Source of the DNA: Steroidobacteraceae bacterium
Lineage (GTDB): Bacteria > Pseudomonadota > Gammaproteobacteria > Steroidobacterales > Steroidobacteraceae
Direction: 5' to 3'
Length of the DNA: 64,000 bases
Assembly (NCBI GenBank): GCA_035603345.1
Contig: DATNKO010000057.1
Span: forward strand, 7-64,006
Position numbers and translations under genes: made by a program. The notes beneath the pieces are model-generated. The model searched no databases, was not told the origin of the DNA, and worked only from the letters and a program-made list of their open reading frames with translations. Positions 57,125-61,530 of this stretch are shown piece after piece (positions within the stretch are counted from its first letter, which is position 1; each line of letters opens with the position of its first letter).

Positions 57125-57150
57125 ATTAGCGCGCCCGGAGAGATTGCTCC
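57125..57150 (-). repeat. degenerate copy of the tRNA-Arg 3' end
   Basis: AATTAGCGCGCCCGGAGAGATTGCTCC compares with AATTTGGCGCGCCCGGAGAGATTCGAACTCC. The 17-nt core is identical. Confidence 0.55.
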
Positions 57151-57241
57151 GCCGCTGACGCGGCCTCGTTCGTCCCTAACGCTCGGGAGCTCTCACCCAC
57201 ACATTCACAGGACGACTCCCGCGAACTCGACCCCTTTTTTT

Positions 57242-57291
57242 GAATTTGGCGCGCCCGGAGAGATTCGAACTCCCGACCCCCTGGTTCGTAG
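57242..57291 (-). repeat. exact 50-nt duplicate of tRNA-Arg positions 33-77 plus 5 nt of 3' flank (att-type repeat)
   Basis: Identical by hand alignment to 61449..61498. Confidence 0.9.
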
Positions 57292-57820
57292 ATGGAGCGT
57301 TAGCACTAGGGTTCTTGATTTCATTAACTAAATCCGCGTGGCGCCCGTTGCATTTGGCACCACGAAGCAGAGCAAAGCACCCCGAATCACGCAAAAGTCC
57401 CGCAACCACCTGGCGCGCCCTGAGCTGTAGAGCTAAAGAACGGGAAGCATCACTTCATCACTCCCTCGCCTGGTCAGTTTCGCTGCACAATGGACAAATC
57501 CCAAGCGCGGAGGCCCGGGTAGTCGAGCGAATTCGCGAGGTCATCGGAGTTTCGCTGCGAAACTCTCCACGAACTCAGGATTCGTCCTCTGGCGCGCCGA
57601 ATCCGAGGCACCTGCCAATTTAGCGCGCTGCCCACTTGGTCAGCGCTGCACCGCTTGAGCGGTGAAGTCCTGAACGACTCGATGTCGCCGCTGCCGCTGA
57701 GAGGGATCCCAATCGCGATCGCCGGATTATCCGGCGCGATCGCGAAGTCGGAGAGTGGTGAGCGAAACGACGACTGCTGGTGCAGACATCGGCCTACGAA
57801 CAGCGGGACCTCGACTACCT

Positions 57821-58048
57821 CTAGCCTCGTGGTTGGCTATCTATCCTTTCCCTGATGAGTTGGATAAGCGGGAGCACGATCCAACCAGCGGCTAGAAAGG
57901 AAAGAGGACTGGGGTAGATTCCTCGTTCAATCCAGGGCACATCTTGCAGGTCGTACGCGCTGATGCAGGCGATGACGTATAAGCAGCCACCGACAATCAA
58001 CCAAGCAAAAAAATCGCGAAACGAATCGAGTGGCTTCAGTGGCTTCAT
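57821..58048 (-). CDS. small two-TM membrane protein, unknown function
   Basis: 75 aa, AT-rich, with two clear hydrophobic helices. Confidence 0.35.
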   Translation of the reverse strand: MKPLKPLDSFRDFFAWLIVGGCLYVIACISAYDLQDVPWIERGIYPSPLSFLAAGWIVLPLIQLIRERIDSQPRG

Positions 58049-58235
58049 GCTGGTTCGGTTGAGTTAGCGGCCAAGACCCGAGGCCTCGTTCGCGGAGCGT
58101 GCCAGAATTAACTTTGTTTGAAACGGCGACATACGCGGCTACGTTGTCGTTCGCTTCTGGGCGTCTCTTATTTGGAAAGATTGAGTAACAGGTCTTGGTG
58201 CCATCGGCGTGGCGCTAGACGGCCAAAGTCCGTTG

Positions 58236-58814
58236 CTATTTTGTTACAGAATACCCGTTCGCTTTGATGAACTTCTCCATGGCAGGGTTCAGTTGGACGG
58301 CCCTGGAAAAATCAGCACTGGAGCCTTTCGTATCGCCCAGCTTCTTCTTCAAGATACCGCGATTGATGTACGGTCCAGCCGTGGTTGGGCTTAGCTCAAT
58401 GGCTCGGTTGTAGTCCGCGAGTGCGCCGTCGAGGTTGCCTTTGCGAGACTTCGTAAGGCCTCGATTGTTGTATGCCCTCATGTACGTCGAATTCAACGCA
58501 ATGGCTTTGTCGTAATCTGCTATCGCTGCGTCCAAATCGCCCTGAGCTACCCTGGCGGTTCCACGCATGTCATAGGCTTGAAAATAATCACGTTTGAGCG
58601 AAATAGCTTTGGTGTAGTCAGCAACCGCGCCTCTCAGGTCGTTCTTGGATTGCTTTGCTAGGCCGCGATCGTAGTAAGCAGCTGCAAGGCGCGGATCTAA
58701 TTCGATAGCCTTGTCAAAATCGGACAGTGCACCGTCAAGGTCGCTCTTTTCAGCCTTAGCAACGCCGCTATGCTGATAGTCTCCAGAGTATTGCAGACAA
58801 GCCGTATGTCTATG
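58236..58814 (-). pseudogene. TPR-repeat protein fragment lacking a start codon
   Basis: The frame is open from the TAG at 58815-58817 and reads repeated 34-aa units (DLDGALSDFDKAIELDP..., LRGAVADYTKAISL..., DLDAAIADYDKAIALN..., LDGALADYNRAIELSP...). The first ATG/GTG/TTG is at 58568. Confidence 0.6.
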
Positions 58815-58844
58815 CTATGAATCCGGGCAGCAGCATTGGCTGCA

Positions 58845-58858
58845 TTGGCGCGCCCGGA
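58845..58858 (-). repeat. short remnant of the tRNA-Arg 3' acceptor end
   Basis: TTGGCGCGCCCGGA is identical to 61453-61466 and in the same orientation. Confidence 0.4.
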
Positions 58859-59072: not shown

Positions 59073-59306
59073 TCACGGACTCTTCTCTCGCCGGTTGATT
59101 TGCGGTGCCGTAATTACAAACCACAGGAACGCTCCACAAACCCCGCCCGCAACCGCGCATATTAAGGCTGAGTAAATCGACCACGCGACGGTCCACTCCG
59201 AATGATTCCGCTGAAAAAGAACGAGGAAACACGGCAACGAGACGCACAGCTCAAAGCCCGCCATGTGCCCGAGAAGGGACGAACCTAACCATTTAATGAA
59301 CGTCAT
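59073..59306 (-). CDS. small membrane protein, candidate immunity protein for the orphan toxin
   Basis: 77 aa with 2-3 hydrophobic helices. Its ATG overlaps the upstream stop (ATGA). Confidence 0.45.
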   Translation of the reverse strand: MTFIKWLGSSLLGHMAGFELCVSLPCFLVLFQRNHSEWTVAWSIYSALICAVAGGVCGAFLWFVITAPQINRREKSP

Positions 59307-59686
59307 GGATTAGTAGGACATTGTTCCGAAGTGCCGAGGTATCCCGCGGTCGTGCCGGCAGCGAAGCCTGCTGCACCAAAGGTTGTACCGAAATAAAGGT
59401 GAGCTTCGTAGGGGACCGCCTCCGGCGCTCCAAAGAGGGAAACTGCCACCGCTACGCCGAAGACGGTCCCTCCGATATATCCGACCATGCCAGTATTGAC
59501 AACATTTCCCGGTTCCTTCGAGTTGTTGAACCTGCTTGGCGTGCCTCCATCCGGGCACGTCGTCGGGGGCGGCGGGGACGGGGGACCACACCCCGGCCCT
59601 CCACCGCCCTTTTCGCACTGCGGAGGTGGGAGGTCGGGTAGCTGCGGCTGATTCCCTTGCGGCAAATACGCTAAAACAGACGACAC
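59303..59686 (-). CDS. orphan toxin C-terminal cassette, glycine-zipper type
   Basis: Begins with LPQGNQPQLP, encoded by the 24-nt handle shared with the Rhs gene. It then has a Pro/Gly/Cys linker and GMVGYIGGTVFGVAVAVSLFG / FGTTFGAAGFAAGTTAGYLG. Confidence 0.5.
   Translation of the reverse strand: MSSVLAYLPQGNQPQLPDLPPPQCEKGGGGPGCGPPSPPPPTTCPDGGTPSRFNNSKEPGNVVNTGMVGYIGGTVFGVAVAVSLFGAPEAVPYEAHLYFGTTFGAAGFAAGTTAGYLGTSEQCPTNP
59641..59664 (-). repeat. 24-nt handle, orphan copy
   Basis: GCTGCGGCTGATTCCCTTGCGGCA is identical to 60334..60357. Confidence 0.85.
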
Positions 59687-59693
59687 AATGCAA

Positions 59694-59966
59694 TCATCGA
59701 ACGACCTCTTTTTTGTGCTTCACTGCAGATATTGAAAGCGCTATTCCAGCGTATAACACTCCATTCAACAAGGGCGTGACTAACCAAGAGAAGTCAGTTT
59801 CTGGCAATAACCAAAATGGGCAGGTGGCATAAACGACGTACCAATAAATAGTCGTCCAAATCGACTCCCTCGCATTGAAGAAAATGAAACTGACGACGCC
59901 CCAGAATATAGGCACCACGCAGCCAATCAGACCCCAGATCATCACGGTGCGTTTTCTACGATCCAA
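59694..59966 (-). CDS. small three-TM membrane protein, candidate immunity protein for the PLA2-like toxin
   Basis: 90 aa, AT-rich, starting 56 nt downstream of the Rhs stop. Confidence 0.5.
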   Translation of the reverse strand: MDRRKRTVMIWGLIGCVVPIFWGVVSFIFFNARESIWTTIYWYVVYATCPFWLLPETDFSWLVTPLLNGVLYAGIALSISAVKHKKEVVR

Positions 59967-60022
59967 ACGAAATCTCCACGACGTTGGTCAGTTGGGTCAC
60001 TCAGGAGTAACTCTCGAGGGAA

Positions 60023-61432
60023 CTAGGGTCCACAAGAAACTTTGCCCGGAACTAAGAAGCTAAAGTAGAAATTGACGCGAGAGCTACCAGGCGCGCTACT
60101 CTGACGCGCGGCATTGCAAAGCAATTGGTTACATGCCTGAAGACTGTTTGAATCTGTGACCGACAGGTCTGAAAAGTTTGACATTGCTGAGAACCTAGAG
60201 CCGTAGCACATATCGTGCAACTGACAGGCTTCATCTAAGTCATTGACTGGCGGTCCCGCACCGCCCGGCCCGCACCAATGAGTCCCGAACATCCGTGTGG
60301 GATAGGGGGCAGTAACTACAACTTCTGGAAGCTGCTGCGGCTGATTCCCTTGCGGCACTGTTTGCGGTTGCTGACCAGTTAGACTCGCAACGCTAGGGAT
60401 GCCAGTAGGGAATGGCGACAAGTCTATGGGAACCTGACAGTGAGCGCACACAGTGACCGTGCAGATTCCCTGGCCGCCGTTCTCCGGGCCCGGAGCGCAA
60501 GTGGTTGGTGGCGTGAGGTCGACGGTAGCTGACGGGCATCCGATGAGACAACCCCTGCTCTGATCGATGGGGTTCGCAAGGCTGGAGGCGATGTCATCAA
60601 GTCCCGCCAAGAAGCCTTGGTCTGGATCCGCAGAAGCCGCCGCAAACTGCTGCATTGCTGAATTATTGAACCCAGCGTCGCCAGGATCGGAGCCCCCGCA
60701 TACCCGACATTTGCCCAAGCCTGAGCCGGCATCCTGTTTGCACGCCCACGCCGGCGTGCAGAACCCGGAGGGATCGGTCAAGGTAAGCGGATTGTTGTTC
60801 GCATAACTGTACTGGTTATAGCTCTGCGGGTCGGTTCCATCGGGAACGTGCGGATCGGCAGACAGCATGCGCCCGGTGATCGCGTCCTCCACCCGGCCGT
60901 TCATGTGGTTCATGCCCATCCAGAGACCCAGTTGCGTTTGGAAAGTATAGCCCTGACGAGTAATGCCGGCGACCGTGGTCAGATCCGAGTTGCTGGCCGC
61001 ACCGGACCAGGTCGTGGGATTCCGACGCTGCCCGAATGGCGTGAAGCTTTCGTTGACGATGCTCGTGCCGCTGCTGTTGGTGAGATCGGACACACTCCCC
61101 TGGTGATCGGAGAGCGCGTAGCTGAACGTGTTGCCCGCGCTTGAACGCGCGTACACGGCAACCGGCTCACTGCCGGCGTAGATATAGTGCCGGTAAGTGG
61201 TGGTTGACCCGCTCGAGACGACTTCCATGAGACCCCCGACGTAATTGGTGGTTTCGCTCGTCCCGTTCCCGGTATACATCTGCTGCCAGCGGCTCCGATC
61301 CGGGCCATAGGAAAAGGCGACGGTCTCGGCCGTCGACCCGCTGCCGGCATTCACGGTGGTCGGATAGTTGTAGCTCGACCAGACGATCGAGTTGCCCTGA
61401 CGCGCGGTCGCATTGCCGTTCGCGTCGTAAAG
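60023..61432 (-). pseudogene. Rhs/YD-repeat protein, C-terminal fragment with a PLA2-like toxin domain (5' truncated)
   Basis: Open from the TGA at 61433-61435. Has YDANGN, YRHYIYAGSEPVAVY, SDHQGSV, TPFGQRR and the core end NPLTLTDPSGF. A 12-Cys linker follows, then WCGPGGAG...CQLHDMCY. Confidence 0.8.
60334..60357 (-). repeat. 24-nt handle, Rhs copy
   Basis: Encodes PQGNQPQ immediately upstream of the toxin domain. Confidence 0.85.
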
Positions 61433-61453
61433 TCAGTATTTTTTCGAGGAATT

Positions 61454-61530
61454 TGGCGCGCCCGGAGAGATTCGAACTCCCGACCCCCTGGTTCGTAGCC
61501 AGGTACTCTATCCAACTGAGCTACGGGCGC
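61454..61530 (-). tRNA. tRNA-Arg (anticodon ACG)
   Basis: 77 nt, folded by hand as GCGCCCG-TA-GCTC-AGTTGGATA-GAGT-A-CCTGG-CTACGAA-CCAGG-GGGTC-GGGAG-TTCGAAT-CTCTC-CGGGCGC-G-CCA. Close to E. coli tRNA-Arg(ACG). Confidence 0.95.

Follow-up and report, generated by a model that had tools for sequence, protein, structure and literature searches.

A 64,000-nucleotide stretch of DNA (hereafter the window) from a Steroidobacteraceae bacterium carries two exact copies of a 50-mer, GAATTTGGCGCGCCCGGAGAGATTCGAACTCCCGACCCCCTGGTTCGTAG, at positions 57242-57291 and 61449-61498, the second of them overlapping a tRNA-Arg(ACG) gene. The two copies were interpreted as the attachment (att) sites of one decayed integrative mobilizable element (IME), which now persists as a remnant resembling a cis-mobilizable element (CIME) at a tRNA-Arg(ACG) hotspot, and the probability of this interpretation is put at about 0.85. 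The window is contig C77 of genome G000, a metagenome-assembled genome (MAG) of 3.69 Mb in 84 contigs, with 67.8% GC and a completeness of 95%.

A single tRNA was called in the window using ARAGORN, an intact tRNA-Arg(ACG) at 61454-61530 on the minus strand that scored 65.6 bits against the Rfam tRNA model; nothing besides this tRNA was detected in an Rfam scan of 42-64 kb of the window. The 50-mer contains tRNA positions 33-77, which are the last 45 nt of the gene, plus 5 nt of flank, and the 3' 45 nt of the gene form the core of the tRNA-proximal att repeat (61449-61498). An earlier note on this DNA had described this exact duplication and had regarded a repeat running from the anticodon loop to the 3' end as the footprint of a tyrosine integrase; both statements held for the long repeat. 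Exactly two copies of the 50-mer were present in the 3.69-Mb genome, with none beyond these two in a genome-wide scan, and a 24-mer taken from it gave zero matches in 100 shuffles of the window. The sequence between the copies, 57292-61453 (4.2 kb), is the sole att-bounded islet in this genome, and no additional att copies were found elsewhere in the window. Two look-alikes were tried as att relics: TGGCGCGCCC at 57411 was rejected, as it sits within a conserved block of the island arm described below, and a second at 57590 was without support.

In this genus of soil Gammaproteobacteria, the tRNA-Arg(ACG) gene serves as a hotspot for integration. The gene is conserved in 31 relatives, and the sequence on its downstream side is not. 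Backbone genes that occupy 35.2-42.2 kb of the window, 19 kb from the tRNA, stand 3.8-6 kb from it in G001 and G007, which shows that the region downstream of the tRNA is variable. Partial copies of the tRNA lie near the gene in many genomes, and a 45-nt copy ends at the same base (...CTGGTTCGTAG|) in G013, G014, G010, and G008, a boundary that is common to the tRNA-proximal repeat of the window; the att copies of G004 and G060 are 4 nt longer than this G013-type boundary. In G013 one integrase gene lies beside the tRNA and a second beside an att copy 18 kb off, forming two tandem islands, and in G004 integrase genes adjoin both the tRNA and the att copy. G009 and G035 have integrase pseudogenes at this tRNA, and att-bounded islets of 2.6-4 kb without an integrase are found in G014, G043, and G112. 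The alignment with relatives that the earlier note had called for therefore gave high island polymorphism, both among relatives and among near-identical strains, and its objection that all genomes might show one arrangement fails; the accompanying search of relatives returned integrases at the same tRNA (G013 and G004) as well as full-length Rhs genes. As a separate observation, the counterpart of the backbone segment at 34566-38276 of the window is inverted on the other side of the tRNA in G011 (L024, G011:C15, 11432-15226), which places the end of a rearrangement at the tRNA.

The nature of the lost element was recognized from its two arms. The island adjacent to the tRNA in G013 encodes the tyrosine integrase int1 (377 aa), a TrwB-type coupling protein, and a TrwC relaxase, and is therefore an IME; it also carries two IS110 transposases, a sulfatase, and an AbiE toxin-antitoxin pair. 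The window has both arms of this integrase-relaxase island. The proximal arm is a relic of 24 nt at 61430-61453, located between the former position of the int1 stop codon and the tRNA, and has about 22 of 27 nt in common with the spacer between the tRNA and int1 in G013 (manual count); in two sister contigs, L066 and L065, the same 24 nt continue directly into the coding sequence of int1. The distal arm (57292-57420, with a conserved block at 57335-57414) is homologous to the far end of the G013 island and to the flank of the G008 att copy. Beyond it, at 57472-57594, is a conserved non-coding element of about 115 nt with 87% identical copies by int1-like integrase genes in G035:C1 and G037:C2; the element contains an internal 9-bp palindrome, and the two matches lie just upstream of the int1-like genes.

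As the earlier note had stated, the segment has no integrase. No PF00589 match was obtained in a six-frame profile search of contig C77, tblastn with five integrases from relatives detected no integrase remnants in the window, and domain searches of 57292-61453 found no relaxase, coupling protein, or integrase. Of the features of a tRNA-integrated tyrosine-recombinase island, the locus thus displays flanking direct repeats of the 3' part of the tRNA and a repeat boundary common to homologous elements at the same tRNA, and lacks an integrase beside an att site. A repeat of 50 nt could in principle arise without any integrase, through an RtT-type duplicative process or unequal recombination, and units of RtT type do show duplication of tRNA 3' ends at this locus by another route (see below). 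Those repeats, however, end in the T-loop and copy 19 nt, whereas the 45-nt block ends in the anticodon loop at the very base used by the att copies that flank integrase-bearing islands, and both arms are homologous to an integrase-relaxase element; an integrase-free origin is accordingly considered scarcely credible.

Stages in the decay of the element were recovered from other metagenomes. Eight contigs, found by exact-protein look-ups with two small open reading frames (ORFs) of the islet, are 99-100% identical to it. L066 has a 49-nt att copy followed by the same 24 nt and then by an int1 pseudogene, which retains residues 1-131 and 330-377 and is 80-90% identical to int1 of G013; beyond the pseudogene are a trio of tyrosine recombinase genes and a longer Rhs piece than that of the window. 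In L065, int1 is reduced to its last 11 codons, which adjoin the Rhs piece, and the window has zero int1 codons left. Relative to L066, the window lacks 4,297 bp (L066 273-4569), and the junction of this deletion has at most 1-2 nt of microhomology, with neither endpoint at an att site; for these reasons the integrase and the 5' part of the Rhs gene are regarded as lost by illegitimate deletion and not, as the earlier note had proposed, by att x att recombination. A candidate tRNA-like relic 42 nt past the 24-nt arm in L066 and L065 was rejected, since it is the C-terminal coding end of int1.

In L065/L073 and in L066, a second island lies beyond that att copy, on its far side from the islet. 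It carries a P4-like integrase, which in L065 is 82% identical to a partial integrase gene of G004, and in L073 the stacked island comprises at least 11 kb of genes, including those for an N6/N4 methyltransferase, LPD7, and a ParB-like protein. Stacking of islands, as suggested by the earlier note, does occur at this site in sister strains and in G013; the genome of the window itself has just one att-bounded islet.

The same contigs bear on the possibility that the arrangement exists in no single cell and that the assembled contig threads island-bearing and island-free strains across a short repeat. The genome is an 84-contig MAG and the sister strains differ exactly at this place, which would suit such an artefact. 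A chimeric join, on the other hand, would leave one repeat copy and not two with unique flanks each. L068 and L070, which derive from other samples, reproduce 57123-61430 in one piece at 99.9% identity, L069 does so in part, and in L065 the 24-nt relic and the Rhs piece are connected in the same way. Only in the window contig does the relic run directly into a full-length tRNA. An assembly artefact was judged improbable on this evidence.

Two shorter tRNA-end copies, reported in the earlier note at 58845-58858 and 57125-57150, are present, and all copies have the same orientation (4/4 on the plus strand). That note had taken the four copies as four stacked island remnants, with one integrase event for each copy and with the integrases removed by att x att deletions. 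The common orientation, the rarity of the 58845 copy in the genome, and the stacking known at the same site in G013 and the sister strains are in favor of this proposal. The 58845 copy is a 14-mer, TTGGCGCGCCCGGA, that forms one arm of a GC-rich hairpin; just 4 loci outside this locus have any 14-mer of the 50-mer across 7.4 Mb of strand sequence, and the probability of a single chance 14-mer match within 4.2 kb is therefore about 0.002-0.005. The leftmost copy has a 17-mer, GCGCGCCCGGAGAGATT, that occurs three times in the genome, always at this locus (third copy at 57129-57145), and a tRNA-end 19-mer at 57127-57145 that is 18/19 identical, with one mismatch, where 0.05 matches would be expected. 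The short copies are thus hard to ascribe to chance, as the earlier note had allowed they might be, although the 14-mer is still without the support of a junction: in the relatives and sister contigs compared, none has a breakpoint at 58845, and all read through it unchanged or are without the region. In addition, the loss of the integrase maps to the 4,297-bp deletion with non-att endpoints, and the 57127 copy constitutes the terminal 19 nt of an RtT-like unit, a module that follows tRNA-Arg in 23 of 121 genomes of the genus. Four stacked remnants are consequently considered unlikely, if somewhat less so than an assembly artefact, and of the four tRNA-end copies, one is part of an RtT-type repeat rather than of an island.

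The module that ends in the 57127-57145 19-mer was identified by comparison within the genus, where its copies are 75-96% identical. Without exception they are located downstream, at a distance of 20-70 nt, from a tRNA-Arg gene with a TCG or ACG anticodon or from an att copy of such a gene. A covariance model, R1, was built from this module, and the window copy was aligned to 14 others. Copies from 12 relatives form five hairpins, with 97.6% of cells paired and 6 compensatory pairs, and their covariation score was reached in 0 of 500 shuffles. The window copy, a truncated unit with its spacer at 57127-57246 on the minus strand (R1, 35.4 bits, E = 2.6e-8), has an internal deletion and has lost most of the hairpins. 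In G035 the module, with the same flank as the distal att copy of the window, abuts an intact tRNA, and its neighbor in the window, G004, and G060 is the distal att copy, an arrangement expected if the island had entered between the tRNA body and the module.

R1 was searched across the order, and related units were detected in 28 of 151 genomes, among which seven loci with nine units were inspected more closely. At five of the seven, a gene for tRNA-Gln, tRNA-Ser, tRNA-Arg, or tmRNA precedes the unit, whose end reproduces exactly the last 19 nt of that gene (18 for the tmRNA); the other two (G150 and G211:C51) have no tRNA gene within the stretch examined. G254 has three tandem units with a period of 177-178 nt, as at E. 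coli tyrT. A unit behind tRNA-Gln in the same genome as the window (G000:C1:36408-36540; L074 509-641) matches the Rfam RtT model over its full length with 34.5 bits, and R1 matches the annotated E. coli rttR with 18 bits (E = 0.0018). At the E. coli tyrT locus the tRNA-Tyr 19-mer occurs six times, and four of these occurrences follow one another at intervals of exactly 178 nt. Based on the conservation of the module, the 19-nt ends at neighboring genes, the RtT and rttR matches, and the tyrT spacing, the leftmost copy (57125-57150) was read as the end of a truncated RtT-like repeat rather than as an established island remnant.

RtT RNA (Rfam RF00391) corresponds to the repeats, each of 178 bp, in the tyrT operon of E. 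coli (PMC3318445, citing Bosl and Kersten 1991) and is a known feature without an explained function (PMC3318445, PMC7542023). The units described here resemble it in their position just downstream of a tRNA gene, in ending in the last 19 nt of that tRNA from the T-loop to CCA (18/19 in the window), in the tandem array of G254, and in the motifs GGAUGAGAAC, GGUUCGA, and CGAGCG together with a hairpin-rich core, which is conserved in the 12 relatives. In seven relatives, at tRNA-Arg, tRNA-Gln, and tRNA-Ser, the terminal match is 19/19, and at tmRNA it spans 18 nt. The units differ in that the copies here follow tRNA-Arg and not tRNA-Tyr and in that the window copy is truncated, mostly without hairpins. 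Scores also fall below the 45-bit Rfam gathering threshold, the Arg-linked units having no RtT match and the tRNA-Gln unit 34.5 bits, and the link is transitive, by way of the tRNA-Gln unit as an intermediate and the weak match of R1 to rttR. It is possible, though rather doubtful, that the RtT-like units form an unrecognised family of structured elements of about 130-180 nt that duplicate or insert at the T-loop of an adjacent tRNA or tmRNA gene and copy its last 19 nt. Such a family could range from E. coli tyrT to tRNA-Arg, tRNA-Gln, tRNA-Ser, and tmRNA genes, and the leftmost copy of the window could then be the scar of such an element. The older literature on the E. coli tyrT repeats left a question unanswered, and it would be reopened if the units were a mobile or duplicative family serving many tRNAs.

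Under the interpretation of the 50-mers as att sites of one decayed IME, the locus would have started as a native tRNA-Arg(ACG) gene followed by a short spacer and an RtT-like unit ending in the last 19 nt of the tRNA. An IME with an int1-type tyrosine integrase would have recombined in the anticodon loop, given the tRNA a new 45-nt 3' end, and displaced the old 3' end, the spacer, and the RtT unit by 4.2 kb, which would account for the exact 50-nt direct repeat. In the course of decay the integrase gene would have been broken first and then wholly removed by illegitimate deletion, and the transfer genes would have been lost. What remains is both att sites, a 24-nt piece of one arm and roughly 130 nt of the other, and the cargo, which consists of a TPR ORF, small ORFs, and an orphan array of Rhs tips in which a phospholipase-A2-like (PLA2-like) tip and a displaced second tip each have a partner. 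The repeats, the homology of both arms, the series of integrase decay, the accretion in sister strains, and the RtT-like nature of the leftmost copy are shown by the sequences; we infer the order of events, and likewise that the distal att copy (57242-57291) represents the tRNA's original 3' part, displaced yet still attached to its native downstream flank. The remnant would be unable to move alone; its excision or co-transfer could occur, at the present day as well, if a related element integrated alongside it.

Several points weigh against this interpretation. The junctions rest on the assembly of a MAG, with independent contigs from other samples as their sole support, and the assembled genome, which is 95% complete, yielded no cognate integrase of either the int1 or the P4-like type. 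A model of island decay also leaves the 14-mer at 58845 unaccounted for. The Rhs array, finally, might postdate the decay instead of being original cargo.

The concept of CIMEs and a three-step model of accretion have been described (PMC5704250), with the ICESt1-related elements of Streptococcus thermophilus as an example of CIMEs and tandem accretion (Pavlovic et al. 2004, cited in PMC5704250). The islet resembles CIMEs in that both att sites are kept, with both 50-mers intact and relics of both arms present, and in that the genes for integration and transfer are lost. As with elements that descend from an integrative and conjugative element or an IME, it derives from a relaxase-bearing element, according to the match of its arms to G013 and the integrase decay series, and a functional element integrates alongside it in sister strains. 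It differs from the ICESt1-related CIMEs in its host, a soil Gammaproteobacterium, in its target, the anticodon loop of tRNA-Arg(ACG), and in its cargo, a Rhs tip array. The main feature is of an ordinary kind and is unusually well documented. Island decay at tRNA hotspots is well known, and the islands at ssrA in Dehalococcoides, an example of tandem genomic islands at tmRNA and tRNA genes, reportedly stand in tandem behind repeated att copies, some of them without an integrase. Those islands share with the present locus a hotspot at a small RNA gene and differ in the target gene, the integrases, and the cargo (PMC3146451). At the tRNA-Arg(ACG) gene, the public data hold the full series at one site, from an intact integrase-relaxase element through a broken integrase and an 11-codon stub to nothing, together with sister strains in which a second island is stacked on the remnant. 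The locus also illustrates that a copy of a tRNA end near the tRNA is not always the scar of an integrase, one of the copies here being an RtT-type repeat, and with the islet, Rhs toxin tips are carried on a vehicle that could potentially be mobilized.

The cargo begins next to the tRNA inside a Rhs gene, as the earlier note had recognized. An orphan C-terminal piece at 60023-61432 on the minus strand comprises the last YD repeat, the Rhs-associated core (TIGR03696, 34.6 bits, above the cut-off), and a PLA2-like tip; its reading frame begins with YDANGN at 61432, some 22 nt away from the 3' end of the tRNA. Scores of PF00068 and PF08398 on this piece were below their cut-offs. The ORF that follows (59694-59966, minus strand) encodes a 90-aa membrane protein with no family match, which is present or absent together with the PLA2-like tip in the variants and is presumed, from its position, to be the immunity partner of that tip. 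A displaced second tip (127 aa, 59303-59686) and its 77-aa partner (59073-59306) occupy 59073-59686 on the minus strand and are marked by a 24-nt handle, the sequence at 59641-59664 being identical to that at 60334-60357. The PLA2-like tip and the 90-aa partner (59665-60333) are present in the window and in L068-L070 and absent in L065, L066, and L067, where the 24-nt handle is the point of fusion between the Rhs core and the second tip; the toxin tips therefore differ between strains. The remaining cargo at 57821-58568 on the minus strand consists of a TPR-repeat ORF (110 aa, 58236-58568, with Pfam TPR matches) and a 75-aa membrane ORF (57821-58048), both of which are in all sister contigs. 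In one sister strain an IS66-family element has inserted into the TPR ORF (L071 132-3154, at about 58504-58517 of the window).

This array resembles the orphan rhs-CT/immunity modules (PMC3150448, Poole et al. 2011) in having a core fragment, here with the N-terminal YD shell absent, after which come a variable tip and, downstream, a small gene, and in the C-terminal displacement of an older tip behind a short handle, with tips swapped among strains. It differs in that it is located within a tRNA-linked island remnant instead of behind a full-length rhs gene. The assembled genome yielded no full-length copy, having no PF05593 match and just two truncated core matches; the full-length Rhs genes of relatives encode about 1,900-2,100 aa (open frames of 1,873-2,188 aa). 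The second Rhs copy of the genome, at G000:C81:74647-75558 (L030 6648-7558), has an internal deletion that joins an N-terminal fragment of about 230 nt to a position 7 nt ahead of the YDANGN breakpoint seen in the window.

The 5' breakpoints of the Rhs pieces lie within about 5 nt of TACGAC (YDANGN) in the window, L065, L070, C81, G013, and one orphan of G037 (window 61429; L030 7319; L012 7947; L034 8092; L065 about 4570; L070 about 1700). No common 3' end or motif was found among these orphans, and they do not form a clade, which makes a single origin unlikely. A Rhs core with a recurrent breakpoint within about 5 nt of TACGAC, used in at least six independent truncations, would be a second and weaker candidate feature of the locus, and the recombinase-trio element located there in sister strains may be connected with it. 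A pseudo-att site in Rhs was also considered (TTACGAC against the anticodon loop CTACGAA) and was set aside as speculation, with 5/7 identities and unfit flanks. Recombinase-in-trio genes, three tandem tyrosine recombinases, lie directly upstream of the Rhs piece at L066 1490-4148 and L070 3-1456, and a similar trio is found inside the Rhs orphan array of G037 (L034 16118-18818).

Other observations concern the surroundings of the islet. The GC content of the window drops across its last 9 kb. A TPR-methyltransferase gene at 54722-57116 is represented by two overlapping ORFs in the window and by one 798-aa ORF in L067 and L070, and the split is therefore attributed to a fresh frameshift or a sequencing error. 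A segment of about 100 nt at 54016-54115, without an Rfam match, has several matching loci per genome in many relatives, at 75-85% identity. A repeat of about 175 nt, with 79% identity between its copies at 43636-43814 and 62378-62551, flanks the variable region and also has matches in G012, G010, and G008.

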